From Patescibacteria group bacterium (GTDB taxonomy: Bacteria > Patescibacteriota > Microgenomatia > Levybacterales > UBA12049), in NCBI GenBank assembly GCA_023485865.1, contig JAMCZC010000002.1, forward strand, positions 1,000-64,999: a DNA stretch of 64,000 nt. Direction: 5' to 3'. The translations under genes and the position numbers were made by a program. Positions 3,963 through 49,797 of this stretch are shown here, piece after piece. Position 1 is the first letter of the stretch, and the number at the start of each line of letters is the position of its first letter. The notes under the pieces were generated by a model, which was not told the origin of the DNA, searched no databases, and saw only the letters and a list, made by a program, of their open reading frames with translations.

Positions 3963-6900
3963 ATGACAGAGCGAGGGCCAAGAGCAATTGATTTGACAAA
4001 CCAGGCTAATCCTCATAGACTGAATGTAAGAGGAGATATTTTTATGCCAGGAGAACCAGGTGGCGGAGAAACGCCGCCAATACATCATCCAGCAGCAGAA
4101 ACAAGCAAAAAGCCTAGCGAGCCAGCGGAGTCAAAACCAACCTCAAGATATTTACCTGTCACGTTTGAGAGGCAGCAAGAGGTAAGGGAAGCATGGATGA
4201 GAAGACGGGAAGAACAAGAAAGAGGCGGGGAAAGAATAACAAGGGAACAGCTCGAAACGGAAGAAAAACTTATAAGAATGGGAATTCCACCTATTTCAGG
4301 AGGTTCCGGTGATGAACCGGAAGATTCTCAAGGCCAACCTACGGAAACCGATGCGCAAGCTCCTGAAAGAAGAACATTTAAGCCATCTGCTGAATGGCAA
4401 GAAATTCCAAGAAGTGTGGCAATTCCTCCAGGGGCAACAATAAGAATGGATATGGAGTCAGGCAAAAGTTATGCCAAATGGGACACGCCTCCCGAAACAG
4501 AGATTGAATATGAATTTGGAGCAGAAAGTGCCGGAGATGGCGGAGGACAAGAGCCCCCAGTGCGAGGGGCGGGCCCTCCTGCCAGCCCCCCCGGCGGCGA
4601 TGGAGGAGGTAATGAACCGCCCGCTCCGCCAGTAACTCCACCAGGAGGAGAAGGCGGAAATGGAAATGGTGACGAAAATCCTCGGGAAGAACAAGAACCG
4701 GCAAACGAAGGAGCAGATGCGGCTCATGAGCCTGAATCTCCTACGTCGGCCGCAGATCCTATTAGCAAAGCATTGTCTAGGATTCCTGAAGACTTAACTA
4801 AGGATGAAAAAGATTTCATTAGCGAAAATTATGGTGAAGACGCAGAAGACTTAATAAAAAGAGCCACGGAACAAAGAAGGGCGCTAAAACTCTACGCAGA
4901 TCAATTTAGAGAAGAGCGATTTGATAGACTATTCGATCCGGAGCGCTCGTATTATAAATTGAGTGAAGCCATAAGAATGGGAGAGGTCTCCGCGGTAGAG
5001 GCTGAAGAGCTTCGAATGGCAATAGCAACAAGCGCTGTAGCGGAAAGATTACGAAGACAACCCCCTGAAGAAAGGGATGAGATAAGAGATCTACTAGAGA
5101 GAACAAAGGATGGTACGCCGGAAGCAAAACTAGAGAGAAGGAATGGTCTTAAGGGGTGGATTGAAAGAATTAATCCTGATTACATAACAGTTGATCCAAA
5201 TTTCATGCGAGCGGTTGCCGAAGACCCGGAAGCCGCGGAGATGTTTCTTGATAAGATAATTTCAAAACCCTTTGCCTCTCCTGAAGACCAATACAGCCTA
5301 AGCTTTTATGCGGCAATAAATTTATCGGGTTTCTTAACAGAAGTAAATGCCGTAAGTAGACAACGGCACACCGATTATGTGCGGAAAAAAGAAGCTTCGC
5401 TTAGGTTTCATGAAATGAACAGAACCATAATCTCCGAATCGGGCAATCTTGAAGCGTTTTTGAGTATCTCGCGATCGGTAACTCCTCAACACATACAAAC
5501 AGCAACAGAGATAACAGGGGCAGCGCACATGCGACATCTGATTGAAAGCGCCTTTAAAAGGCTATATGCGGCAAAAAATCAAGTAGAGGAACATGACTTT
5601 CCGGAGCAAATTATTGAACGGTCAATAAGGCAATTCTATAGAGATGCAGGGTATGAGCTTGTCGTTGAGCCCGGCGAAAATGAGGGGAAATGGGTATATA
5701 AAGGAAGAGACGTTATCAAAAGCGAATTCCGCGATGCCGATAATAACAAGAGACCCTTAGAAGTTTGGGAAATTGAAAGAGCAGTTGCATTTGGAAGAAA
5801 TATGTCTGCGGCCTTTTACCGTCTATCGGAGCTTGTTTCATGGAGTCATGTTTCCCCGGAAGCGCCGGAATGGCTTAAGTCTATGCCCTCGGAAACCGTG
5901 GTAAGAAATCTCGGAGGCCTTAAAATGCTTCAAGAAAGATTTAAATACGGCCAAACCAAAGGGGGTCCGCAGTTTGTTGCTCTTCTTTACGACAAACTAC
6001 AAAAAGGTTTTAAAGATAAATCCAAAGATTATAACGAAAAGCACGAGAAAGACGGAGAAAGAATGATTACTAAAATTGGCAAACTAAGCATTTTAACAGA
6101 CATACTTCCCACCGGTTTTTATAAGGCCTCGGGATTTGACAAGGGCTGGAGAACTATTGCCGCATACCTTGATACAAAAGTAGCAAGTATAACTATACCT
6201 GATTCAAACATTTTTCCTAATCTAACCAAAAAAGATTTTCCCGAACTCGATCCGAAAAACTTCCCTGACTATAAACCGGAGGATGTGCCAGGCATGGTGA
6301 GAAAAGCAATAGAAGAACTTATGGGTAAAATAAAAGGGAATGAAACAACCTTATATAGATTTCTTCTAAGCCAAGAGCTTGCTGCCCAGCTCGCTACCGC
6401 TGTAAGCGACAAGGAAGCTACGGCTGCCGGGGTATTAACTCCAAAGGAAGACAGACCGTTTAACGCTAAAATACAAAAAATACTTGTTGAACAAGCATTG
6501 ATGCCGCTTTTAGGATATAAATATAACCCGGAGGGAGCTAAGAAAAGAGCTAAAGAGAAAAACCCGCAAGAAGCTAATTGGATAGGTCCGTGGGAATATA
6601 AAGGAGATGCAGAAGCGGGAGATAGGATGGTAGACCAAATAAATCTATCTTTAGGGATTTTGATAGGAAATGGCTCGTCTTCGGAAAGAGTCAAAACTGC
6701 TCTCTGGAAGAAAACTGCGTCTTTCCTGCCGCTTGAAGTTGGGCAACTCTTATCAGAAGCAGGCGTCAGAGAACTTATCGATGATTATGATGTACACAAA
6801 GCCCCCAACGAAAAAATTCAAGGGGAGGGCGAGTTTCTTTTTAGCGACGAATTTGAGAGAAAATTATTCAGGGCGGAACAATCAAGAATTAGAGCGCAAG

Positions 6901-7679
6901 TTCAAGAGCAAGAGAGGGCGGTGGGCGCAGAGGCTAAAGCTGAAAGAATAGCTGGGAGAATTGAGCTCGACAGTTTTCTTGCAACAGCCGGTCTTGATGC
7001 GGATGAAATTGCTTTTGTAAGAAAACTTCAGAAGTTTGGTAAAGATAGAGCCGAACAACTTGCGATGGTTTCTTTCCCGCACATTCCCTTTCTGGAAGAC
7101 GTTCCTTTTGATAAGGCAGATTACATTAGTCTTGGCGCAGAAGTTTTTCCAAGACGAATCGGAAGAGATTTTAGCGGTTATGCAAAAGCAACAGAAGAAG
7201 GCGGAAATATTATCGGCCACCTTGAATTACCATACGAAAACTTTCTTGAAATAGTAGGAAAAGTAGAGGATAGCCTTTCGGGTCCGGAGGGTTCGATAGC
7301 TGCCCAAGATTTGGGCTCAACTTTTCTAAAAACATATATTGATCTTGCCAAACAATGGGGGATTACGCGTTTGCCGCTGGTTAAAGGGGTACGTGAGTTT
7401 AGGGGATTACCAACTTCCGGATTTCAGAAGATCTTCGGACGAGAAGCCCCCTCTTGGGGACCAACGGAGATAAACCATGAAGTTAATGTGGCGCTTGGTA
7501 AAGGACTGATAAGAAGGGAAATAATTCCTGGCGAAAAAGAGTCTCAGACGGATGAAATTTTGCATCACGCACGCGCTGCGTGGCTAAATGTTTTGAATGA
7601 GCAGGGGCCAAAAGGACTGATGTTTCTAATAATGACTGCTCTTTTTAAATTCTTCAAAGAGGTCACGAAAAGTAAGTAA
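3963..7679 (+). CDS. Large acidic hypothetical protein (1238 aa) with Pro/Gly/Glu-rich disordered N-terminal region
   Basis: Single long ORF with no competing frames. No signal peptide or TM segment is visible. Residues ~30-260 are low-complexity (PGGEGGNGNGDE, PPASPPGGDGGG) and locally GC-rich; the remainder looks globular. No domain recognised. The start could instead be the internal MPGEPGG. Confidence 0.6.
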   Translation: MTERGPRAIDLTNQANPHRLNVRGDIFMPGEPGGGETPPIHHPAAETSKKPSEPAESKPTSRYLPVTFERQQEVREAWMRRREEQERGGERITREQLETEEKLIRMGIPPISGGSGDEPEDSQGQPTETDAQAPERRTFKPSAEWQEIPRSVAIPPGATIRMDMESGKSYAKWDTPPETEIEYEFGAESAGDGGGQEPPVRGAGPPASPPGGDGGGNEPPAPPVTPPGGEGGNGNGDENPREEQEPANEGADAAHEPESPTSAADPISKALSRIPEDLTKDEKDFISENYGEDAEDLIKRATEQRRALKLYADQFREERFDRLFDPERSYYKLSEAIRMGEVSAVEAEELRMAIATSAVAERLRRQPPEERDEIRDLLERTKDGTPEAKLERRNGLKGWIERINPDYITVDPNFMRAVAEDPEAAEMFLDKIISKPFASPEDQYSLSFYAAINLSGFLTEVNAVSRQRHTDYVRKKEASLRFHEMNRTIISESGNLEAFLSISRSVTPQHIQTATEITGAAHMRHLIESAFKRLYAAKNQVEEHDFPEQIIERSIRQFYRDAGYELVVEPGENEGKWVYKGRDVIKSEFRDADNNKRPLEVWEIERAVAFGRNMSAAFYRLSELVSWSHVSPEAPEWLKSMPSETVVRNLGGLKMLQERFKYGQTKGGPQFVALLYDKLQKGFKDKSKDYNEKHEKDGERMITKIGKLSILTDILPTGFYKASGFDKGWRTIAAYLDTKVASITIPDSNIFPNLTKKDFPELDPKNFPDYKPEDVPGMVRKAIEELMGKIKGNETTLYRFLLSQELAAQLATAVSDKEATAAGVLTPKEDRPFNAKIQKILVEQALMPLLGYKYNPEGAKKRAKEKNPQEANWIGPWEYKGDAEAGDRMVDQINLSLGILIGNGSSSERVKTALWKKTASFLPLEVGQLLSEAGVRELIDDYDVHKAPNEKIQGEGEFLFSDEFERKLFRAEQSRIRAQVQEQERAVGAEAKAERIAGRIELDSFLATAGLDADEIAFVRKLQKFGKDRAEQLAMVSFPHIPFLEDVPFDKADYISLGAEVFPRRIGRDFSGYAKATEEGGNIIGHLELPYENFLEIVGKVEDSLSGPEGSIAAQDLGSTFLKTYIDLAKQWGITRLPLVKGVREFRGLPTSGFQKIFGREAPSWGPTEINHEVNVALGKGLIRREIIPGEKESQTDEILHHARAAWLNVLNEQGPKGLMFLIMTALFKFFKEVTKSK

Positions 7680-7709: not shown

Positions 7710-9428
7710 TCATTTACGCGTAAATGACGGCAATTTAGGGAGCCTTCTTCTTATATAATCCCCGGCTTCAAATACGAGCGCCTGTTTAACGATCGCACTC
7801 GCCGCAGATCCTGGAGCGCCTACAACCGCAGTTCCTGTTCCGAGGTATCTGCCTATCGGAGCAAGGTCAATTTTCGGAGCCTTAAAAGCAGCTTTTGTCA
7901 TATTTACAACACTCGGTGTGGAAAGTATGACTCCGACTGTGATTAAAGCACCTATTGCGCCGGATACTCCGGGGTTGCCAACAAGAGGAGGGACAAATTG
8001 TCCGCCGGTTTGCGTTGCGCCGACAGCAGTACTTAACATTTTTCCAATAAGGAACATAGCTATGGTTACCGGAAAAGCGGAAAGATTAGCAACTATATCT
8101 CTTAGCCAGGCACCGAAGCCTACATTTTGTGAATTCCCCCCAGGCATAAGGCCGGCTATTATCCAAAACGGCGCAAAAATAACATCCACCAAAACCATAA
8201 CGTAGGCTATAATAAGAGTAAACCAAAGCCTGATTAGCGCGGCAAAAACGGCAATAAAAATTATTAAAAATATAATTGTATTAGGGATAATTTCTCTTAA
8301 AAGGACTTCAAAGCCTGCGAGAGAAATAATTCCCGCCCCGCCCCCGATAAGAGTATTTAAGCCAGGTATGTTGCCGAAGAAACCTGCTGGATTTGCTTGA
8401 GCCACTTGTATGCCTGTCATTATTGCTGCTATGCTGCTTATTGTATGAATTAATATGTTTACAGGACTGTTATCAAGTACTCCTCCCAATGGCCCCCCGA
8501 TTCCTATAATGCTCCTAAACATATCTCCGAATGGACCTGCTACCCCCATTATTGCGTTAAAGCCTCCGCCTCCGCTTGCTCCGCCCTTTGCCATCGCATC
8601 AAAAGCTGCAAAAGGAGTGTTGCCTTGGAGAAAAACAGGATTTAGAGTACTTAAGTCAGCATTGGGAACGGACTTAGCAGTTTCAGAAAAAACATTAAAA
8701 AATAAATAAATAGCCACATACATTACGTCGATAAGAAATCCTGCAATTGCAAAGGAAAAAGTCACCATGAGTAATCCGATTATTATTTTGGGAATTTGGT
8801 TTTGAATAGTCATTACGGTTCTTGGGTCAATTTTGACTCTTAGCATGATTGCGATGCCTATAATTACAAACACTAAGATAAAAATAAGATAAACAATATT
8901 TCTGAAAACAGACCAAACGCCAATTAAGTTTAATTTGCTTAGCCCGCAAAACCCAATTCCGCGCGGGTCCTGATAGCAAGGGTTGGGGGCAGGAGATACG
9001 GCGTATGTGGGTTTTGAAATACCAAAATTTTGAGATAAATAGTTAATATAATCTCTGGAGCGTATGGGCGGAGTATATAGGATGGTAATTAAATTACCCA
9101 TTACCCCTACCGCGCCGCCGCCGTTTTCGACAAACCCGATTTTTCCGGTTTTTTGGTCAACGCCTAAGCATTTTGCCGAAGGATTGGTGGGGTCAACTCC
9201 TGCCAGCTGGCAAGTCATTGCCGACATTACTTCTATCATTACGTTTTGCGTCCAGTTGTGGAGATTATTCGGAACATCCGGATTTGTGTTTGGCGAGGTA
9301 TAAGAATTAACCGGTTGAGTTTGCGGCTGAACAGGTGCTTGGGCGAAGGTCGGTGCCTTAATAAGCAACAGCGAAAAAAATACAAGAAGAACAAAAATTA
9401 TGGATTTAAACAAGGCAGCTTTCCTCAT
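7710..9428 (-). CDS. TrbL/VirB6-like polytopic membrane protein (type IV secretion inner-membrane component-like)
   Basis: 572 aa. Signal peptide (MRKAALFKSIIFVLLVFFSLLLIKAPTFAQA) followed by a soluble N-terminal region. At least 6 TM helices and Gly-rich loops (GGASGGGGFNAIMGVAGPFG), typical of TrbL/VirB6. Assignment is from architecture; in the same locus as the pilin genes. Confidence 0.45.
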   Translation of the reverse strand: MRKAALFKSIIFVLLVFFSLLLIKAPTFAQAPVQPQTQPVNSYTSPNTNPDVPNNLHNWTQNVMIEVMSAMTCQLAGVDPTNPSAKCLGVDQKTGKIGFVENGGGAVGVMGNLITILYTPPIRSRDYINYLSQNFGISKPTYAVSPAPNPCYQDPRGIGFCGLSKLNLIGVWSVFRNIVYLIFILVFVIIGIAIMLRVKIDPRTVMTIQNQIPKIIIGLLMVTFSFAIAGFLIDVMYVAIYLFFNVFSETAKSVPNADLSTLNPVFLQGNTPFAAFDAMAKGGASGGGGFNAIMGVAGPFGDMFRSIIGIGGPLGGVLDNSPVNILIHTISSIAAIMTGIQVAQANPAGFFGNIPGLNTLIGGGAGIISLAGFEVLLREIIPNTIIFLIIFIAVFAALIRLWFTLIIAYVMVLVDVIFAPFWIIAGLMPGGNSQNVGFGAWLRDIVANLSAFPVTIAMFLIGKMLSTAVGATQTGGQFVPPLVGNPGVSGAIGALITVGVILSTPSVVNMTKAAFKAPKIDLAPIGRYLGTGTAVVGAPGSAASAIVKQALVFEAGDYIRRRLPKLPSFTRK

Positions 9429-28140: not shown

Positions 28141-29177
28141 TTAGATTAAAAAAAATACAAGAAGCCGATGTTAAGAATAAAACGGTTCTTTTAAGAGCGG
28201 ATTTGGATATTCCTCTCGCGGGGGGGAAGATTGCAGACGATTTTCGTTTAATTACTTCTCTTGAAACTATCAATTATTTTTTAAAGCAAACAAAGACAAT
28301 AGTTATTATCGGTCACCTCGGACGTCCGGAAGAAGGAGATAAAAGTTTAAGTTTGAAAGTTGTGGCGAAGTGGTACGCCAAAAATTTCAAATTTCAAATT
28401 TCAAATTTCAAATTAAAGGATTTTACTGGATGGAAAATTGGAGAAAAGTTAATTCTTTTGGAAAATCTTAGATTCTTTCAGGGCGAAGAAAAAAATGATC
28501 AGGGTTTTTCTAAACAATTAGCCTCACTTGCCGATATTTATGTTAACGACGCTTTTGCTTCTTCGCATAGAGCGCATGCTTCAATAGTCAGTGTCACTAA
28601 ATATTTGCCTTCCTTTGCAGGATTAAGGCTTGAAAAAGAAGTCGAAGAACTTTCAAAAATTCTAAATGGCCCCAAACGGCCGCTGGTGGTGATAATAGGC
28701 GGGGCAAAAATCGAGACAAAACTTCCCCTGGTTGAAAAAATGCACCACTTTGCCGACTATGTTTTGGTGGGCGGGGAAATTGCGGAAAATGATAAAGTTC
28801 TTCTTAAAGTTCAACATGAAAAAATTACAGGCAGAAAATCAATTCTTCTGGTGGCCGATTCGAACGAAGATTTAAACGATATTACTTCCAAATCGGCTGA
28901 AAACTTTGTTCAGATAATTCAAAATGCAAAAACAATTGTTTGGAATGGTCCGATGGGTGTTACGGAAGAAAAAGAAAATCAAAACGGAACAAATATTTTG
29001 GCAGAAGGCATAGTCCAAACATCCGCGGATACAATAGTTGGGGGAGGAGACACACTGGCATTTTTAAAAGAAAAAAATCTGCTTGATAAATTTTCTTTTG
29101 TTTCAACAGGAGGCGGCGCAATGCTGGAATTTTTGGCAGATGAAAATCTCCCGGGCCTGGAAGTGTTGGATATTTAA
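28137..29177 (+). CDS. pgk: Phosphoglycerate kinase
   Basis: VLLRADLDIP..., GHLGRPEEG, and a C-terminal GGGDT-type motif (VGGGDTLAF). Carries an in-frame 7-nt-period repeat (28382..28413) encoding KNFKFQISNFKL. The 3' end (29115..29177) is duplicated downstream at 29767..29832. Confidence 0.9.
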   Translation: MIRLKKIQEADVKNKTVLLRADLDIPLAGGKIADDFRLITSLETINYFLKQTKTIVIIGHLGRPEEGDKSLSLKVVAKWYAKNFKFQISNFKLKDFTGWKIGEKLILLENLRFFQGEEKNDQGFSKQLASLADIYVNDAFASSHRAHASIVSVTKYLPSFAGLRLEKEVEELSKILNGPKRPLVVIIGGAKIETKLPLVEKMHHFADYVLVGGEIAENDKVLLKVQHEKITGRKSILLVADSNEDLNDITSKSAENFVQIIQNAKTIVWNGPMGVTEEKENQNGTNILAEGIVQTSADTIVGGGDTLAFLKEKNLLDKFSFVSTGGGAMLEFLADENLPGLEVLDI

Positions 29178-29197
29178 CTTTAATTTTTCGGGGGGTT

Positions 29198-29226
29198 GAC
29201 AATTTTGTAACTATTGTATATACTTT
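29198..29226 (+). promoter_or_regulatory. Consensus sigma70 promoter (TTGACA-17-TATACT) with flanking inverted repeat, for the relB-yafQ cassette
   Basis: TTGACAattttgtaactattgtaTATACT. An inverted repeat TTGTAAC...GTTACA brackets the -10 and is a candidate autoregulatory operator. Only ~8 nt from the -10 to the ATG (near-leaderless). Confidence 0.5.
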
Positions 29227-29234
29227 GGTTACAT

Positions 29235-29510
29235 ATGAGAACTGTAATTTATATTAAAACAGACAACGAAATAAAAAAGAACGCCCAGAAACTAGCCCTA
29301 GAGCTAGGGCTTAATCTAAGTGACGTAATTAATGCATCTCTTAGAAATTTTATAAGAACTCGAGAGGTCTATTTTTCTTCTATTCCTAAAATGACTTTAG
29401 AGCTTGAGAGAATTCTCGGGCCGATAGATGAAGACATAAAAAGAGGTAGGAATCTTTCCCGACAACTTTCTGATTCTTCTGAAGTAAATGATTACCTCAA
29501 TTCCTTATGA
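29235..29510 (+). CDS. RelB/DinJ-family antitoxin
   Basis: MRTVIYIKTDNEIKKNAQKLALELGLNLSDVINASLRNFI is the RelB/DinJ RHH pattern. 4-nt ATGA overlap with the downstream toxin. Confidence 0.7.
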   Translation: MRTVIYIKTDNEIKKNAQKLALELGLNLSDVINASLRNFIRTREVYFSSIPKMTLELERILGPIDEDIKRGRNLSRQLSDSSEVNDYLNSL

Positions 29511-29764
29511 TAGTTCGCGTTCATAAAAACTTTGAAAAACAATATAAGAAATTAAAAAAAACAGAGAAAGATAAATTTAAAGAGAGAATTAATATTTTTA
29601 TTACAGATGAATTCAATCCAATACTTAATAATCACCCGCTTAGAGGTAAATATTTAGGTTATAGAAGTATTAATGTGACAGGAGATCTTCGGGCAATATA
29701 TAAAAGAGAAGAAAATCTAACAATTTTTGTTGCAGTTAATTCGCACAGCAACCTATATCGATAA
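29507..29764 (+). CDS. RelE/YafQ-family mRNA-interferase toxin
   Basis: 85 aa, basic. Matches the YafQ/RelE pattern (…FKERINIFITDEF…LRGKYLGYRSINVTGDLRAIY…IFVAVNSHSNLY). Confidence 0.7.
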   Translation: MIVRVHKNFEKQYKKLKKTEKDKFKERINIFITDEFNPILNNHPLRGKYLGYRSINVTGDLRAIYKREENLTIFVAVNSHSNLYR

Positions 29765-29766
29765 TT

Positions 29767-29832
29767 GGCGCAATGCTTGAATTTTTAGCCGGCGAAAATC
29801 TCCCGGGCCTGGAAGTCTTGGAACAAAGCTAA
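29767..29832 (+). repeat. Diverged duplicate of the pgk 3' end (~85% identical to 29115..29177), right boundary of the TA cassette
   Basis: GGCGCAATGCTTGAATTTTTAGCCGGCGAAAATCTCCCGGGCCTGGAAGTCTTGGAACAAAGCTAA compared with GGCGCAATGCTGGAATTTTTGGCAGATGAAAATCTCCCGGGCCTGGAAGTGTTGGATATTTAA. The reverse-strand six-frame ORFs at both sites share the same peptide (…LPGPGDF…). Confidence 0.8.
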
Positions 29833-29917: not shown

Positions 29918-31054
29918 ATGCAAAAAGATAGTATAAGTTTCAAAATTCCAGCAATACGCCTTTTCCAAAGAGAGACAGAGGGGAAAGCAATTTACGTAGG
30001 AGTTATTAAGGCTTCAGATTTATCTTCTCATCCGCAAGAAAGATTTAGGATTGCCTATTTTGACAGAGAAAACAAAAATGCAGGTTATCAAAGAAGACTT
30101 CAGGATAATAAAGTCGAGAAACTTAAGGAATTTATACTTAAAGAGACTAAGACCCCATTGTTCCCAACTGCAATATTAGTTAATTCAAGAGAAATGTTAG
30201 ATTTTAAAGAAATCTCTAAGGGGGTAGGAACACTTCATGTAAATGAGCCACTTTTTGTGATTGATGGACAGCATCGTGTTACAGCGTGGAGAGCAATTGT
30301 GGATGAAACCGATCTTGCGGATAAATGGAAGGATTATGAATTTCCAATTGTACTAATGAGCGGTTTTAAAATCCTAGAAGAGATGGAGCAATTTTATGTG
30401 ATAAATTCTAGGCAAACGAAAATCAAAACAGATCTGGTTCACAGCTTGCTACTTGAGTTTGAGAAAAAAGATGAGACTAGAAATTTAGTTAAAGAAAAAG
30501 ACAAATGGATACCTAGGGCAGTAGTAATAACAGAAAATTTAAACAAATCTGGGGCATGGAAAGATAGAATTGGTTACGATTCAGATAGCGATTTAATGCG
30601 AAAGACAAGAGTTATTCAGGCCACGTCAGTTGTCGGAGCTTTAAAGCATTTATTTGTAGGAAATAAAAAGTTATTTGACATAGAAAATCCTAAAATTGAC
30701 GAGTGGATAAAATTTCTAAATGATTATTGGGAAATTATTGCAGATATTTATCCAAATGCAGTTAACAATGCAAACGATTATTCGTTAATGAAGACGGTTG
30801 GAATAAATGTAATGCATATTTTACTAGCCGATAAGTCTTACGATTTAGGCTTAGGCATAGAACAAAAAGAGGAACTCTTAAAAAAAATGAGAGAAACTTT
30901 AGTTCGTGCTGCGATTAGCGATATCCCTGAGGATTTTTGGAGATCTGATGTTTCTAAACAAACAAGAGAGAGAGGAAGATATGCCGGAGCTTTTTCATCC
31001 TCTGCGGGACATAAGAGACTAGCCACAGCAATATTCATAAACAGATTTGATTAA
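29918..31054 (+). CDS. DGQHR-domain protein (DndB-like, ParB/sulfiredoxin-fold nuclease superfamily)
   Basis: 378 aa containing the eponymous motif FVIDGQHRVTAW, with the surrounding pattern of DndB/DGQHR proteins. No dndCDE or other partner genes nearby. Confidence 0.6.
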   Translation: MQKDSISFKIPAIRLFQRETEGKAIYVGVIKASDLSSHPQERFRIAYFDRENKNAGYQRRLQDNKVEKLKEFILKETKTPLFPTAILVNSREMLDFKEISKGVGTLHVNEPLFVIDGQHRVTAWRAIVDETDLADKWKDYEFPIVLMSGFKILEEMEQFYVINSRQTKIKTDLVHSLLLEFEKKDETRNLVKEKDKWIPRAVVITENLNKSGAWKDRIGYDSDSDLMRKTRVIQATSVVGALKHLFVGNKKLFDIENPKIDEWIKFLNDYWEIIADIYPNAVNNANDYSLMKTVGINVMHILLADKSYDLGLGIEQKEELLKKMRETLVRAAISDIPEDFWRSDVSKQTRERGRYAGAFSSSAGHKRLATAIFINRFD

Positions 31055-41523: not shown

Positions 41524-42390
41524 TTAGAGTTCGGTAAGCGCGGCGCCTTCTTTGCTTTTTCCAACCTCTCCGACGTATTGAAGATATCTTTCGGTTGTTG
41601 AAAGTCTTTTGTGTCCTAAAACTTTGGACAAAACAATTAATGAAACGCCGTGTTTTAAGTGGTGGGCGACAAAAGTGTGCCTCAAATCGTTAACTTTCGC
41701 TTCTCTTATTTCTGCTAAGCGGAAATATCTTTCAACAGCCGTTCTAATATTTCTTATCAAAAACGGCTTGCCGGATTTTGTTATGAACAAATGGTCCTCT
41801 TTAACGCTTGGCCGAATATTCATGTACCTAGTTAAAGCTTCCCTGGCGCTTTTATTAAGGGGAACAATTCTGTCTTCATGCTTTTCAAAAGGAGCTATGT
41901 GCAGGCTGTCTTTGGTAACATCCGAAAGTCTTAAGTTTGAAAGCTCGCCGATTCTAATCCCCGTTTGTAAAAGAAGCTCTATAATTGCAAACATTCTCGG
42001 GTCGTTTTTTGCGGCGTCTCTTAATGCCCTATATTCTGTTGGGGTTAAGATTCGCGGGGGCGCCAGCTGATATTTGGGGTGGGATACCAAAAGGGAGGGG
42101 TCATCCGTAACGTATTCGTTTACTTTTAAAAATCGATAAAAGGTTCTGGTTGAATTTATTTTTCTTGAAATTGATTTAGGTGTATAGTTATCCTTGCTCA
42201 TTTTGGCTAGAAAAGCTTCGATGTCTTCCTTAGATACCTCGTGGACCTCGTTTCTTTGCAGTTCTTCCAGGAACGAAAGTAATTGGTCAATATCTTTTCC
42301 GTACGCAATTACGGTGGAGTTTGATTTATTATTTTCCTTTAAATATTTTTTAAATTCTTCGTGGGCATCGCGAAGCTTAATCGGCTTCAT
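41524..42390 (-). CDS. Tyrosine site-specific recombinase (XerC/XerD-like)
   Basis: 288 aa. N-terminal SAM-like core-binding domain. C-terminal catalytic residues within LRHTFVAHHLKHGVSLIVLSKVLGHKRLSTTERYLQY (H-x-x-R ... Y). Its size suits Xer better than a phage integrase. Lies ~90 nt from the tRNA 3' end. Confidence 0.7.
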   Translation of the reverse strand: MKPIKLRDAHEEFKKYLKENNKSNSTVIAYGKDIDQLLSFLEELQRNEVHEVSKEDIEAFLAKMSKDNYTPKSISRKINSTRTFYRFLKVNEYVTDDPSLLVSHPKYQLAPPRILTPTEYRALRDAAKNDPRMFAIIELLLQTGIRIGELSNLRLSDVTKDSLHIAPFEKHEDRIVPLNKSAREALTRYMNIRPSVKEDHLFITKSGKPFLIRNIRTAVERYFRLAEIREAKVNDLRHTFVAHHLKHGVSLIVLSKVLGHKRLSTTERYLQYVGEVGKSKEGAALTEL

Positions 42391-45846: not shown

Positions 45847-47082
45847 ATGAGGCCGACTTTCAAAATAATCAAAAAAGACAAGAAATCAAAAGCCAGAGCT
45901 GGTATTATCAAAACCCCCCATGGTGAGATCGAAACGCCGATTTTTATTCCGGTCGGGACCCAAGGGACGGTAAAAGCAGTTTCACCGCGTGACCTAAAAG
46001 AAATGGGGGCGCAAATAGTTTTGGCAAATACCTATCATTTACACTTAAGGCCGGGAGAAGACCTTATTCAAAAGTTCGGAGGTTTGGCAAAGTTCATGGG
46101 GTGGGAAGACGGTCCCCACTTCGCCAAGACTTCGAGGGGCAGGCCGACGATGACAGACTCCGGAGGTTTTCAGGTTTTTTCTTTAGGGGTAGGAAAGATG
46201 GGCGGAGGGGTGAAATTCCTCAAAGAGGAAATATCAAATTTAAAATATCAAATTTCAAATATAGAAGAGGCAAGGCCAAGACTTAATAAAATTACTGAAG
46301 AAGGGGTGACTTTTCAGTCGCATATTGACGGGTCAAGCCATAAACTGACTCCGGAAAGCTCAATCAAAATTCAGGAAAAGCTCGGAGCCGATTTAATTGT
46401 TGCTTTTGACGATTTGGAGTCGCCCAAATACTCTTTTGAAGAAACAAAAAAATCACTCGAACTTACAAACAGATGGGAGTTGCGTTCGAAAAAAGCTCAC
46501 AAAAGGAAAGATCAATTGCTGTACGGCGTAACTCACGGAGGGCCGTTTAGAGACTTAAGAGAACTTTCCGCCAAATTTGTTGACGAGAACTTTGACGCTA
46601 TTGGTATGGGCGGAGCACACTTGTCAAAGAAAAATTTATATGAGGTAGTTAGTTGGACAACGGATATTGTTTCGGATGAAAAGCCGAGGCATCTTTTGGG
46701 AATTGGAGAAGTTGATGATATTTTTGAAATTATTCAAAGGGGCGTTGATACTTTTGACTGCGTAATTCCAACAAGAATTGGAAGAACTGGATTTTTCTTT
46801 GTTTTCCCGCCCAAAGGCACAGTCAAAAACCGCTTTAGAACAGACATAGACAAGCCAAATTTTAGAACCGACCCAAAACCTTTGGATTTAAATTGCAAAT
46901 GTTATGCTTGTCAGAATTTCAGTAGAGCTTACATCCATCACTTATTTCGAAGCAAGGAACTATTGTCGTATCATCTTTTAAGCCTTCACAACGTCCGTTT
47001 TCTCATTAACCTTACAAAACAAATTAGGAAAGCGATTTTAGAAGATAAGTTTCAAAACCTAAAAAAAGACTGGATTGGTTGA
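45847..47082 (+). CDS. tgt: Queuine tRNA-ribosyltransferase (tRNA-guanine transglycosylase)
   Basis: TPIFIPVGTQGTVK, DSGGFQVFSLG. Zn site CKCYACQNFSRAYIHHLF. Carries an in-frame repeat-derived insertion (46229..46263, KYQISNIEE). The 3' ~90 nt is duplicated downstream at 48709..48796. Confidence 0.85.
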   Translation: MRPTFKIIKKDKKSKARAGIIKTPHGEIETPIFIPVGTQGTVKAVSPRDLKEMGAQIVLANTYHLHLRPGEDLIQKFGGLAKFMGWEDGPHFAKTSRGRPTMTDSGGFQVFSLGVGKMGGGVKFLKEEISNLKYQISNIEEARPRLNKITEEGVTFQSHIDGSSHKLTPESSIKIQEKLGADLIVAFDDLESPKYSFEETKKSLELTNRWELRSKKAHKRKDQLLYGVTHGGPFRDLRELSAKFVDENFDAIGMGGAHLSKKNLYEVVSWTTDIVSDEKPRHLLGIGEVDDIFEIIQRGVDTFDCVIPTRIGRTGFFFVFPPKGTVKNRFRTDIDKPNFRTDPKPLDLNCKCYACQNFSRAYIHHLFRSKELLSYHLLSLHNVRFLINLTKQIRKAILEDKFQNLKKDWIG

Positions 47083-47107
47083 TATTACAATATAGATTTG
47101 ATACTAT

Positions 47108-47719
47108 TTGAGTATGTCAGAGGCCAAAGATGTTTCAGGATCTTATTCAGAAACAGAAGCCCCTACCATAAAAAGATTTTCTAAAGAAGCACTTTCGGCG
47201 CTGGAAAGAAATGGTTTTTGGTTAGGAGAATTAACAGGACAAAGCATAGCAGGTTATGAAAAAGCAGGGAGAAGATTTTATACTAAAACAATTGATAGAT
47301 ACCCTGAGATTAAAGATTTGCTTTCAAGAGCCTCTGAGGTAGCAATAGGAGATCCTCTTAATAAACCATACGATTATATTCTTCCTGATTATAACTGGAA
47401 GAGTTTTAGTGATTATTTTGGGATGATTGATGAATATAATAAAGATTTGCAGGAAAAGATTCCGGACGTAGAGGCTGTAATAGGTGAAGCTCCGGATTAT
47501 GTTGAACTTCTTTGTTCTTTTAGGGATGAAACAGGATTAATACTACTTGATGGTTTGGCATATGCCGCAACAAAAACAAGAGTTGGTAAGAGTACAGTAT
47601 CTGTAGGTCATCAAGATTTTACACCTGATTATGAAATGATCATTCATGCGAATGAAATGCCGGCAGATTATAAATATTTTCTTTCTATGTATTGCGTGCC
47701 CCTTGTTTTTCCTAAGTAA
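47108..47719 (+). CDS. hypothetical protein (cargo of the tgt-associated insertion)
   Basis: 203 aa, no recognised motif. Lies between the two copies of the tgt 3' end. Confidence 0.45.
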   Translation: MSMSEAKDVSGSYSETEAPTIKRFSKEALSALERNGFWLGELTGQSIAGYEKAGRRFYTKTIDRYPEIKDLLSRASEVAIGDPLNKPYDYILPDYNWKSFSDYFGMIDEYNKDLQEKIPDVEAVIGEAPDYVELLCSFRDETGLILLDGLAYAATKTRVGKSTVSVGHQDFTPDYEMIIHANEMPADYKYFLSMYCVPLVFPK

Positions 47720-47899
47720 ATATTATTAATAAAATTTAACTTCTGTGATAATATAGAGGAAATGAGTAAAGTTGTTTTTTCGGGGGTTCAGCTAAGCGAA
47801 ATCTTAAGAGTCAAATAAATGATATGCTAAAAATATGCCTATTGTTTTTTCGACCCACTCCAAAAATCAGCTCAAAAGGCGGCTAAAGAGAAAAATAAT

Positions 47900-48106
47900 A
47901 TGAAAGTTCAATACGCCCCTAAAATAGACGCAATTTATATAGAATTAGCAAAAGGAACATACAAAAATACACGTAAAGTTTCCGATGCTATCTTAGTGGA
48001 TGAAGATAAAAAGGGAAAAGTTTTGGGGATTGAAATTTTAGATGCGACAAAAAACGTTAACGCTTTTAATCCTAAAAATCCAAAACTTTTTATAAGCCCC
48101 CAATAA
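47900..48106 (+). CDS. DUF2283-family small protein
   Basis: 68 aa. MKVQYAPKIDAIYIELAKGTYKNTRKVSDAILVDEDKKGKVLGIEILDA matches the DUF2283 pattern as I remember it, often the small partner in two-gene TA-like pairs. Confidence 0.5.
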   Translation: MKVQYAPKIDAIYIELAKGTYKNTRKVSDAILVDEDKKGKVLGIEILDATKNVNAFNPKNPKLFISPQ

Positions 48107-48138
48107 TCACAAAACTGCTATAATTGCCTCATAGGAAA

Positions 48139-48624
48139 ATGAAGACTTTAAGGATTAAGATTATACTTACTTGTTGGGAAAAAGAACTCGTATGGCGCGT
48201 GATTGAGATTCCTGAAAACAAAACGCTTCATCAGCTGCATCTTGCAATTCAGAAAGCATTTGGCTGGTACAACGATCATTTATATTCATTTTTCATGAGC
48301 AACAACAGGATGGATAGAAAGGGAGAATACACGAGTCCGGTTGACATTGAAGAAGCAGGAGAGGATGCGTTATCGGCAGCAGAAACAAAGTTAAAAGATT
48401 TGAACTTACAGTTAAAGAAAAAATTTCTCTACCTCTATGATTTTGGTGATAATTTAGATCATGAAGTAGAAGTGGTAGGCTTTGGTGAAACGGACGACTT
48501 CCATAAATATCCTCAACTCATAGGCGCATTCGGCGCAGCGCCTGAACAGTACGCAATCCGGCGAGCAGGTATGGAAGAGACAGAGAATGAGAAGTCCCCA
48601 AAATATACAGAAGAGAAAAATTAG
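48139..48624 (+). CDS. pRiA4b ORF-3-like family protein
   Basis: LHQLHLAIQKAFGWYNDHLYSFFM...YLYDFGDNLDHEV. The W..DHLY.F core matches my memory of this family. Start moved to MKTLRIK. Confidence 0.45.
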   Translation: MKTLRIKIILTCWEKELVWRVIEIPENKTLHQLHLAIQKAFGWYNDHLYSFFMSNNRMDRKGEYTSPVDIEEAGEDALSAAETKLKDLNLQLKKKFLYLYDFGDNLDHEVEVVGFGETDDFHKYPQLIGAFGAAPEQYAIRRAGMEETENEKSPKYTEEKN

Positions 48625-48708
48625 TTCTAAACTACAGCACTACATAGTACTATACTTTAGTGAGGTATATCAAAAATTCTCGGGTTAAATCATAATGTTT
48701 ATTTTTTG

Positions 48709-48796
48709 ATTAACCTTACAAAACAAATAAGAAATTCAATTTTGGAAGATAAATTTCAGAAAATGAAAAAAGAATGGCTGGTGTGATAATATAGGG
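48709..48796 (+). repeat. Diverged duplicate (~80% identity) of the tgt 3' end, right boundary of the 1.6-kb insertion
   Basis: ATTAACCTTACAAAACAAATAAGAAATTCAATTTTGGAAGATAAATTTCAGAAAATGAAAAAAGAATGGCTGGTGTGATAATATAG compared with copy 47005..47096. It keeps the in-frame stop at the corresponding position. Confidence 0.75.
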
Positions 48797-48798
48797 AT

Positions 48799-49797
48799 AT
48801 GAAAAGAGTTTTAACAGGAGATACGCCAACCGGCAAACTTCATTTAGGCCATTATGTCGGGACACTCGAAAACAGAATAAAACTGCAAAACGAATATGAA
48901 ATGTTTATTCTTTTTGCAGACACACATGCCTTAACTACGCTAAGTTCCACTCCGAAAATGATTGCGGAATATACAAAAGAAGTTCTTTTGGACAATTTAT
49001 CTGTCGGTTTAGACCCTAAAAGTGTCACTTTTTTTGTTGAATCGGCAATTCCGGAAATATATGAACTAGCTGCAATTTTTAGCATGTACGTTTCCCATAA
49101 TAGGGCATTAAGAAATCCCACAATAAAAGATGAGATTAAATCAAAAGGACTTGGAGATCAATATAGTTTAGGCTTCATAAATTATCCGATTTTCCAGGCT
49201 GCGGATATTCTCTGCGTTAAAGGTCAAGTTGTCCCGGTCGGAAGAGATCAGGAAGCACATCTTGAGCAAACAAGAGAAATCGCAAGAGAATTGAATAAGC
49301 TTACTAATTCAGATATTTTCCCCGAGCCGCAGGCTTTAGCCGGAAGAGTAGGGAAGTTAATTGGAACCGACGGCAATCCTAAGATGGGAAAAAGCCTTAA
49401 TAACACAATTTATCTTTCCGATTCAAAGGATGAAGTTGAAAAAAGGGTTATGAACATGTATACCGACCCAAAAAGAATTCATCCGAGCGATCCGGGAACA
49501 GTGGAAGGGAACCCCGTTTTTATTTATCTCGATACCTTTGCGGCAGAAAAGGACAAAAGACAAATTGAAGAATACAAAAATAAATATAAAAAAGGAGAAG
49601 TAGGGGATGTAGAAGTTAAGAAGTTTTTAACAGGTATCTTGAACGAATTTCTGGAGCCGATAAGACAAAGGCGTGCAGAATATGAAAAAAAACCCGATCT
49701 TTTGCAATCAATTTTGGACAAAGGAAACGTAAGGGTCAGGGAAGATGCAGCAAGGACATTAAATGAATTAAAGCAAAAAATGGGATTGGACCTCTAA
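48799..49797 (+). CDS. trpS: Tryptophan--tRNA ligase
   Basis: Class I HIGH-type motif TGDTPTGKLHLGHYVG and KMSKS-type KMGKSLNN. Confidence 0.85.
   Translation: MKRVLTGDTPTGKLHLGHYVGTLENRIKLQNEYEMFILFADTHALTTLSSTPKMIAEYTKEVLLDNLSVGLDPKSVTFFVESAIPEIYELAAIFSMYVSHNRALRNPTIKDEIKSKGLGDQYSLGFINYPIFQAADILCVKGQVVPVGRDQEAHLEQTREIARELNKLTNSDIFPEPQALAGRVGKLIGTDGNPKMGKSLNNTIYLSDSKDEVEKRVMNMYTDPKRIHPSDPGTVEGNPVFIYLDTFAAEKDKRQIEEYKNKYKKGEVGDVEVKKFLTGILNEFLEPIRQRRAEYEKKPDLLQSILDKGNVRVREDAARTLNELKQKMGLDL

Follow-up and report, generated by a model that had tools for sequence, protein, structure and literature searches.

The 3' end of tgt, the gene for queuine tRNA-ribosyltransferase, occurs twice, on either side of a small block of accessory genes, in a chromosomal stretch of 64,000 nt (hereafter, the window) from the genome of a Candidatus Levybacteria bacterium (Candidate Phyla Radiation, CPR, also called Patescibacteria) with a GC content of 39%. 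Such a duplication of a gene tail around small accessory cargo, without local recombinases, is a recurrent signature in Levybacteria genomes. We interpret the insert at tgt, with a probability of roughly 0.57, as a recombination scar at an accessory-gene hotspot, left by homology-anchored illegitimate recombination (“tail displacement”), rather than as a self-mobile element. The process is one already described for Rhs and type VI secretion system (T6SS) loci, and it would here have acted at housekeeping genes of a CPR bacterium. A first-pass annotation of the window, prepared from the sequence letters, had instead seen a type of element that it did not recognize; a known process, homology-facilitated illegitimate recombination, fits the locus better than a new element class.

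The features of the tgt locus are given below by their positions in the window. Contigs of relatives are labelled L001 and so on; the loci scanned were chosen for tgt, pgk or cargo, and counts among them are therefore not frequency estimates.

45847–47082, + strand: tgt, intact (Pfam TGT, E 7e-122)
46986–47096, + strand: left repeat copy, the tgt tail in use and a few bases past its stop, interpreted as the incoming (donor) tail (alignment; affinity to L042)
47114–47719, + strand: ORF203, hypothetical, without a Pfam family (distantly related to the variable proteins of diversity-generating retroelements, DGRs)
47741–47792, + strand: foreign tgt/trpS junction relic, consisting of promoter-like TGTGATAATATAG (47744–47756) and the first 31 nt of a type-2 trpS (47762–47792) (sequence match)
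47835–47903, + strand: truncated DUF4258-type toxin gene, 22 codons, MPIVFSTHSKNQLKRRLKRKII followed by a stop (N-terminus 12/16 identical by eye to an L122 protein)
47900–48106, + strand: DUF2283 gene, antitoxin-like (Pfam DUF2283, E 3e-12; 78% nucleotide identity to L122 7135–7309)
48115–48627, + strand: PRiA4_ORF3 block, a -10-like TGCTATAAT and then the gene at 48139–48624 (Pfam PRiA4_ORF3, E 1e-28)
48625–48689, + strand: spacer after PRiA4_ORF3, homologous to the L118 spacer (72% over 76 nt to L118 7574–7648)
48690–48798, + strand: right repeat copy, interpreted as the displaced resident tgt tail (31–32 codons plus stop), with the native 12-nt spacer before trpS (junction match to relatives)
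48799–49797, + strand: trpS type 1, directly 3' of tgt in uninserted relatives (Pfam tRNA-synt_1b; synteny)

The second tail lies 1704 nt downstream of the first, with 74 of 97 nucleotides identical (76%; 46986–47082 versus 48690–48786) and no insertion or deletion before the stop, and a repeat search of the window delimited the match as 102 nt at 76% identity (46986–47087 versus 48690–48791). The first-pass annotation had reported that the final ~90 nt of tgt recur at ~80% identity with the stop conserved, and this holds: identity is 79.5% over the coding stretch 47005–47082 versus 48709–48786, the repeat starting ~19 nt further upstream than reported. Both copies contain an identical 20-nt core (ATTAACCTTACAAAACAAAT, at 47005 and 48709) and close on an in-frame stop, their translated ends reading NVRFLINLTKQIRKAILEDKFQNLKKDWIG and NVYFLINLTKQIRNSILEDKFQKMKKEWLV. 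The local alignment score of the two tails was 85, compared with a maximum of 27 for shuffled downstream sequence; tblastn gave E = 1.4e-13; and when 62 gene tails of the window were tested alike, a downstream copy stood out for tgt and pgk only. The repeat is no assembly artefact, because the Logan contigs of three independent single-run assemblies (SRR10244963, SRR10278331 and SRR10267473) agree with the window at 100% identity over this stretch, and one of them covers both copies. The restriction of recurring tails to tgt and pgk also speaks against a generic terminator-like repeat, the other trivial explanation raised at the outset, and neither an Rfam family nor a terminator-like site was found. 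A structured RNA, a terminator or a miniature inverted-repeat transposable element (MITE) was accordingly rejected, the last on account of the lack of terminal inverted repeats.

In nine relatives with the gene order murD-tgt-trpS-ftsH, trpS directly follows tgt after a gap of roughly 12–25 nt, and the ~1.7 kb between the two tails of the window is therefore an insertion, as the first-pass annotation had supposed when it proposed this comparison of spacings. The right copy retains the native arrangement, since its junction GTGTGATAATATAG..ATGAAAAG is the tgt-trpS junction seen in relatives. Within this displaced tail, and overlapping its stop codon, is a promoter-like motif that could serve trpS (48763–48790; ATGAAA-16-GATAAT, TG upstream); it is a consensus match only, the count of such sites in the region not exceeding that in shuffles.

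The inserted DNA had been described as a discrete integrative cassette of 1.6 kb, a description that does not survive closer inspection: the insert is pieced together from at least three modules, among them a captured piece of the tgt-ORF203-trpS junction of another genome, and its ends bear no terminal inverted repeats, an inverted-repeat scan yielding chance-level pairs only. The three intervening genes had been annotated correctly, as confirmed by Pfam; the interval also holds two gene relics absent from that annotation, namely the first 31 nt of trpS and the DUF4258 stub. L042, in which tgt is likewise followed by an ORF203 homologue (79% nucleotide identity), is collinear with the window from the left copy through ORF203 to the junction relic, at 79%. 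The trpS stub (47762–47792) is identical to the L009 trpS start at 30 of 31 nt, the relic including its spacer matches L005 at 47 of 56, and the 13-mer TGTGATAATATAG after ORF203 recurs identically at 48782, over the stop of the displaced tail. Homology of the stub to relatives ends abruptly at 47792/47793. By these matches, the relic stems from a tgt/trpS junction that was captured from a genome of the other trpS type, and an illegitimate joint terminates it.

Downstream of this joint, the DUF2283 gene is best regarded as an orphaned antitoxin-like gene, because its upstream DUF4258-type partner is only a 22-codon stub. In L122, an intact DUF4258 gene (Pfam DUF4258, E 1.4e-8 for the protein) adjoins DUF2283 (~6790–7334); the window stub gave no DUF4258 match in Pfam, its sole hit being CheR_N at E 0.029, far below cutoff. 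The PRiA4_ORF3 block has a sharp left boundary at its -10-like element, and on its other side the spacer meets the right tail at 48689/48690, where homology to relatives breaks off. The PRiA4_ORF3 gene is 83–88% identical at the nucleotide level to its counterparts in L118, L122 and L125, genomes whose tgt is only 65–70% identical to that of the window, which shows that it has been transferred horizontally. Its place is nevertheless constant: in all long contigs checked, it lies between tgt and trpS, with a tgt-tail copy next to it on the 3' side; spreading while remaining bound to one locus is as expected for transfer that depends on flanking homology. DUF2283 precedes PRiA4_ORF3 in the window, and the order is opposite in L122.

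Homologues of two of these cargo genes were also seen in other contexts. The ORF203 homologues of L043 and L044 are DGR variable proteins, with a C-terminal variable repeat (VR) and a template repeat (TR) downstream (VR/TR at 8565–8680/8979–9094 in L043 and at 8598–8716/9017–9135 in L044); the changes between VR and TR are adenine-specific (17/17 and 20/22, respectively), and the L043 pair is adjoined by bAvd and a reverse transcriptase. Near ORF203 of the window no TR or reverse transcriptase was found, and the window as a whole gave no reverse-transcriptase match. More distant PRiA4_ORF3 homologues sit at other loci; one of them, 49% identical, separates the methylase gene from the specificity gene of a type I restriction-modification operon (L130 3138–3581 and L131 2740–3183) and adjoins a LexA-like gene, a context that hints at a defence-related role for the family.

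The two tgt tails have different histories. By codon position (first/second/third), the differences between tail copies number 5/2/15 for tgt in the window and 11/4/28 in L006, and 0/1/6 and 6/4/15 for the corresponding pgk tails of the window and of L134; because of this third-position bias and the retention of frame and stop, both tails of a pair are taken to have diverged as real gene ends in different lineages, not as a functional tail and its decaying duplicate. The right copy is closest to the L009 tail (82.8%), L009 being also the best match for the middle of window tgt (82%) and for ftsH (92% at the amino acid level). The left copy is closest to L042, at 76% compared with 71% for the right copy when correctly framed tails are used; in a comparison without the correctly framed L042, it matched L001, L005 and L046 at 74%. 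From these affinities, the left copy looks foreign, deriving from an L042-like lineage, and the right copy looks resident, belonging to an L009-like lineage. The difference of 20–24% between copies is a measure of different lineages of origin and not of age; the first-pass view of the process as active or recently active is not supported.

The change of affinity is not confined to the repeat. Positions 46450–46749 of tgt are 82% identical to L009 and 63% to L042, and positions 46750–47082 are 70.6% and 74.2% identical, respectively; the switch near 46750 is supported by Fisher p values of 7e-4 and 3e-3 and is among the most extreme of all pairs compared. The 3' third and the middle part of window tgt thus seem to differ in lineage of origin, and these identities suggest that donor-like sequence begins within tgt, ~240 nt before the repeat, an extension not expected of a site-specific insertion. 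A clearer case of a mosaic anchor than window tgt is provided by L118 and L125, which share 96% identity upstream, 75–79% across murD-tgt and 92% once the displaced tail begins. The contigs L040 (window 46819–48802) and L041 (window 47794–48802), from different runs, both stop at 48802, 4 bases into trpS, and L040 starts at 46819, close to the putative tgt breakpoint; such contig ends may stem from branching of the assembly graph between strains where the transferred block begins and ends, or simply from low coverage.

Both tgt-trpS and pgk-gap are variable accessory-gene hotspots in Levybacteria. The tgt-trpS interval ranges from ~12 nt to ~3 kb among genomes and holds at least eight different cargo sets, which in other Levybacteria include TrpR-like regulators, RelB/YafQ and RHH/PIN toxin–antitoxin pairs, the DUF4258/DUF2283 pair, a PaaX/Cas2-like protein and several unknowns; proteins of 418–437 aa adjoining tgt in L122 and L059 gave only sub-threshold matches of winged-helix/helix-turn-helix type. 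Next to this cargo, the gene tail is repeatedly found again, and the signature recurs beyond the window at tgt (L006, L122, L118, L125 and L078), at pgk (L134) and at eno (L014). In L006, a tgt-tail copy of 39 codons bounds the cargo (E 1e-15); L122 has an exact 23-nt tgt-tail repeat and, after PRiA4_ORF3, a second copy; L118 has two tgt-tail copies, and the match in L125 is 19 of 20 nt. The left edges of the tgt-tail copies fall at three different positions, about -8 to -123 nt from the stop. The trpS slot between tgt and ftsH is itself variable, being occupied by three versions with a mutual identity of only ~29–38% (window, L001–L009, L026, L048, L059, L118 and L125), as though an essential gene had been replaced in place more than once.

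The instance at pgk, which the first-pass annotation had reported alongside that at tgt, is equally distinct, with 50 of 56 nucleotides identical between the tail copies (29115–29170 versus 29767–29822) that flank a RelB/YafQ pair:

29115–29832, + strand: pgk instance, with pgk tail 29115–29177, RelB/YafQ-type toxin–antitoxin pair 29235–29764 and displaced tail 29767–29832 (alignment, Pfam)

The pgk-gap interval is empty in L133 and holds a TrpR-like gene and a displaced pgk tail in L134, the L134 tail copy being independent of that in the window and starting at the same codon. A gene with a DGQHR domain (DndB/DpdB-like, 29918–31054) lies alone between the displaced pgk tail of the window and gap, and is considered a second piece of cargo in this slot because gap directly follows pgk in relatives. 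The idea that the same cassette had entered two target genes was rejected, as the toxin–antitoxin pairs at pgk in the window and at tgt in L125 are only 32–38% identical; the TrpR-like genes at pgk in L134 and at tgt are also unrelated, and no mobility between loci was seen. At L014 9328–12902, in a metagenome-assembled genome (MAG) labelled Rickettsiales, an enolase tail of 16 aa recurs 2.2 kb downstream at 94% identity; after a 684-aa open reading frame (ORF), this copy is fused in frame to an aminotransferase-like 5' fragment, the same architecture of head stub plus tail copy.

According to the reading favoured here, incoming DNA from another Levybacterium would have paired with the resident tgt by ordinary homology, bringing its own tgt tail and accessory genes, and its far end would have been joined without extended homology, or via a short patch, within the last ~100 nt of the resident gene. 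The donor tail would now complete tgt, and the resident tail, shifted 1.7 kb downstream and still fused to trpS and overlapping the trpS promoter, would persist as the second copy; no element-encoded recombinase would be necessary. The inserted block would itself have been built by earlier events of like kind, with the trpS stub, the decayed DUF4258/DUF2283 pair and the locus-bound PRiA4_ORF3 as their traces. In compact genomes, the promoter of the next gene would lie in or against the tail of the previous one, and only insertions that duplicate the tail would then keep both tgt and trpS working. Anchoring by homology, joining without it, the way in which the DNA entered and this selective argument are our inferences; the insertion, its patchwork make-up, the differing lineage affinities of the tails, the horizontal spread of the cargo and the lack of recombinase genes are observed. 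The reading is preferred on account of the mosaic anchors, the visible illegitimate joints, the trpS 5' stub and the locus-bound horizontal spread of PRiA4_ORF3.

None of the loci with cargo or a tail copy that were examined (eight at tgt, two at pgk and one at eno) encodes a recombinase, in agreement with the first-pass view of the cargo as accessory or toxin–antitoxin-like genes without a recombinase of their own; in the cargo of the window, L006, L026, L059, L118, L122 and L125, scans with Pfam, NCBIfam and PADLOC gave no recombinase or transposase domain. The nearest tyrosine recombinase is an Xer-like gene at 41524–42390, 4.6 kb upstream, which had been put forward as the possible integrase. 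Its protein matches XerC, XerD and XerA equally well, with scores that fall short of the family cutoffs and lie far below integron-integrase cutoffs, and the gene order Xer, DivIC, SAM (S-adenosylmethionine) hydrolase-like, murD, tgt is the same in L118; the gene looks to be of housekeeping type by this conserved synteny, and it was set aside as a candidate. The inverted-repeat scan showed no attC-like hairpins between modules, and no intI is adjacent. No motif is common to the tgt sites (three positions), the pgk site and the eno site; dyad symmetry was not seen by eye, no dedicated scan having been made, in the 20-nt core or in CCTCAAAAAAGCCTGGATTTAA, the 22-nt tgt-tail site; and the 22-nt motif met unrelated chance matches only in viral contigs. 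The duplications are variable in length (8–150 nt), unlike the fixed-length target duplication of a transposon or MITE. A reading of the tgt and pgk repeats as a DGR VR/TR pair, which is true of the ORF203 homologues elsewhere, was rejected for the repeats themselves: the 23 mismatches between the tgt copies of the window are of ten different kinds and are not adenine-specific. Rejected, too, was the idea of a remnant tail that arrived with type-1 trpS from a donor of that trpS type, the remnant being closest to the tgt tails of type-2 genomes, e.g., L009. A literature search for a described CPR element of such a kind returned nothing specific.

Several observations weigh against the reading as an illegitimate recombination scar. 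The mosaic signal in tgt is modest (74% versus 71% in the last third), other tgt pairs of the clade are mosaic as well, and the available empty-site relatives are not very close, so that the joints cannot be placed to the base. The boundaries of tail copies recur: copies of 19–24 nt with nearly the same left edge, 22–24 nt before the tgt stop, follow different modules in L118, L122 and L125, L122 having an exact 23-nt direct repeat; the pgk tail copies of the window and L134 share their start codon position despite different cargo; several cargo genes stop 0–2 nt before the tail copy; and arrays occur with a tail copy between modules. These recurring edges look like attachment (att) sites, and random illegitimate joints predict them only with extra assumptions, namely if joints were inherited and spread by flanking homology, if GC-rich microhomologies acted as hot spots, or if deletional streamlining shaped the edges. 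They are what would be expected of site-specific integration, in which integrase-less cassettes (like cis-mobilizable elements, CIMEs; integrative mobilizable elements exploiting Xer, IMEX; or pdif modules) would use the tgt-tail copy as att and a recombinase supplied in trans (the host Xer-like protein, or a phage or plasmid integrase), repeated insertions giving rise to arrays. The identical 20-nt core in the window, the constant placement of PRiA4_ORF3 at tgt-trpS beside a tail copy, and the presence of an Xer-like tyrosine recombinase 4.6 kb away would also suit this explanation. We consider it unlikely, though the strongest of the alternatives: the examined loci encode no recombinase, and the lack of a motif common to tgt and pgk would call for several unseen recombinases; no dyad symmetry (by eye) or attC-like structure marks the core or the 22-nt site, and viral contigs offer nothing relevant that matches the latter; the Xer-like gene keeps its conserved housekeeping neighbourhood; and the insert holds a chromosomal relic, the trpS stub, with donor-like sequence extending upstream of the repeat. 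For the same reasons (no shared att motif, tgt boundaries from -8 to -123, donor-like sequence that seems to go beyond the repeat), the class of site-targeting cassettes proposed in the first-pass annotation is not supported; the more general notion that gene 3' ends are targeted stands in so far as tail copies occur at tgt, pgk and eno, and fails in that a trpS 5' fragment was also left behind. A more far-reaching version, which we regard as doubtful, would make conserved gene tails the portable att-like arms of a CPR cassette system, recombinase-free or driven by the host Xer. The units of such a system, an equally doubtful construct, would consist of a promoter, one to three accessory or toxin–antitoxin genes and a copy of the target tail, and would insert repeatedly at tgt, pgk and other housekeeping gene ends. 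If true, these units would build arrays, cross species and always restore the target gene, and their signature would be the recurring boundaries (at tgt in three genomes, at one pgk codon in two) and the abutting stop codons.

A further alternative, RecA-dependent insertion of the Campbell type, would have a circle looped out between two tail copies and reinserted by a single crossover in the ~100 nt of tail homology. It would explain the recurrent left boundaries, inherited with the circle, and the resemblance of the tails to local functional alleles; the reversed order of DUF2283 and PRiA4_ORF3 in L122 is what circular permutation would give, and repeats of ~100–150 nt, as in the window and L006, could support RecA pairing. 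This account is nonetheless improbable, given that the left copy is wholly donor-like and the right wholly resident-like with no crossover visible within the repeat, that 76% identity over ~100 nt, or 22 nt in other genomes, is a poor RecA substrate, and that no circle has been observed. Local tandem duplication of the tgt tail, with cargo inserted between the copies and divergence in place, would likewise give two copies in the same orientation with an in-frame stop, yet it is very hard to square with divergence at third positions, with the preservation of frame and stop in a non-functional copy, with the different closest relatives of the copies, and with the stub of a foreign trpS type between them. 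Least probable of all is an artefact or a repeat of another sort, whether a chimeric metagenome assembly, a generic terminator-like repeat or a DGR VR/TR pair; the window is indeed a metagenome-assembled contig, and ORF203 homologues do have VR/TR pairs, but the three identical single-run assemblies, the specificity of tail recurrence among the 62 genes, the mismatch spectrum, the lack of a reverse transcriptase in the window and the lack of a terminator-like site all point elsewhere.

Among known systems, the closest parallel to displacement of the resident tgt tail is found at Rhs and T6SS loci, for whose orphan 3' ends and arrays of immunity genes homology-facilitated illegitimate recombination with displacement of the 3' (C-terminal) end has been proposed (Kirchberger et al., 2017; PMC5361080); such displacement concerns Rhs, contact-dependent inhibition (CDI) and T6SS effector-immunity loci (see also Jackson et al., 2009, as cited in PMC5361080). 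At these loci, as at tgt, the anchor lies in a conserved part of the gene, a new 3' end arrives with extra genes, the old 3' end is kept downstream as an orphan, and successive events produce arrays without an integrase. The present anchors differ in being housekeeping genes (tgt and pgk) of a CPR bacterium instead of polymorphic toxins, and the displaced piece is a conserved tail over the promoter of the next gene, not an alternative toxin tip. Homology-facilitated illegitimate recombination is documented in transformable bacteria (de Vries and Wackernagel, 2002; Prudhomme et al., 2002; Meier and Wackernagel, 2003, all as cited in PMC5361080; see also PMC3240628). These cases share with the tgt locus one homologous end, one illegitimate joint and foreign genes trapped beside the anchor. 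They were laboratory events, whereas the mechanism at tgt is read from sequence alone, and the joint would here lie upstream of the end of the anchor, giving a duplication and not a deletion.

Other comparisons are more partial. Minimal mobile elements of Neisseria occupy a slot between two conserved genes, with different whole-gene cassettes in different strains that are exchanged by flanking homology. The tgt-trpS slot resembles them in having the same flanking genes, varied cassettes or none, and no mobility genes; such elements are not known to be defined by tail duplications or gene stubs. The term itself is used in, e.g., PMC3082526. A further difference is that the flanking trpS is itself swapped among three xenologous types. 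Integrative elements that enter gene 3' ends and supply a replacement tail include e14 and phage 21 at icd, SGI1 at trmE, and ICESt3 and CIMEs at fda. As at tgt, the insert lies between direct repeats of the gene tail, and the tail that came with it keeps the gene whole. These elements differ in having defined ends, a fixed att core and an integrase, either their own or a cognate one from a related element; at tgt, no integrase or defined ends were found, and the boundaries vary among events, although the two window copies share the 20-nt core. Integron arrays, clusters of attC sites lacking integron-integrases (CALINs) and Xer-dependent pdif modules consist of small cargo units, often toxin–antitoxin pairs, with a short recurring site between them and a recombinase that is not inside the units. 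The Levybacteria loci are similar in their small units, often toxin–antitoxin pairs, separated by a short recurring site; they differ in lacking attC hairpins or dif-like dyad sites (28 bp with two inverted Xer arms; by inspection), in that the tail of the adjacent housekeeping gene itself acts as the recurring spacer, and in that the units have promoter-like sequences of their own (hexamers seen by eye, which are not above chance in a consensus scan).

CPR bacteria have very small genomes with few recognizable mobile elements, yet their accessory, defence-like and toxin–antitoxin genes vary. The loci described here illustrate one entry route for such genes, namely recombination anchored in a housekeeping gene, in which duplication of the tail spares both that gene and the overlapping promoter of its neighbour; the same slot shows the replacement of an essential gene, trpS, whose three versions differ greatly. 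Gene stubs and displaced tails are usable as markers to date and trace horizontal transfer in uncultured lineages, and they should neither be annotated as pseudogenes of unknown origin nor be read as a new class of mobile element.

The genes that surround these loci in the window are of housekeeping character, comprising penicillin-binding proteins, pgk, gap, ribonucleotide reductase, murD, tgt, trpS and ftsH, with a 5'-3' exonuclease, fpg, recF and an ATP-dependent ligase as further neighbours; the tgt protein is up to 79% identical to those of Levyibacteriota MAGs. Some additional features were noted around tgt in relatives. The upstream side of the gene is variable as well, since the murD-tgt spacer of L006 (1710–4290) carries cargo, consisting of a DUF2283 gene and unknown ORFs of 465 and 261 aa. 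In the more distant lineage of L078 (8168–8545), two copies of the tgt tail (62% identical over 32 aa, E 4e-13) flank a GC-rich, non-coding insert of 375 nt that folds far better than shuffles (z = -4.7) and has GGGAGACAGGC near both ends, with no Rfam match. The YafQ-type toxin of the pair 3' of tgt is split by a frameshift in L118–L121 (L118 6661–6916) and intact in L125. Finally, the ftsH match falls into two pieces ~1.1–1.3 kb apart in L007 (8269–11505), L048 (9922–13038) and L057 (9269–12505), which suggests an insertion inside ftsH, possibly an intein or another element.

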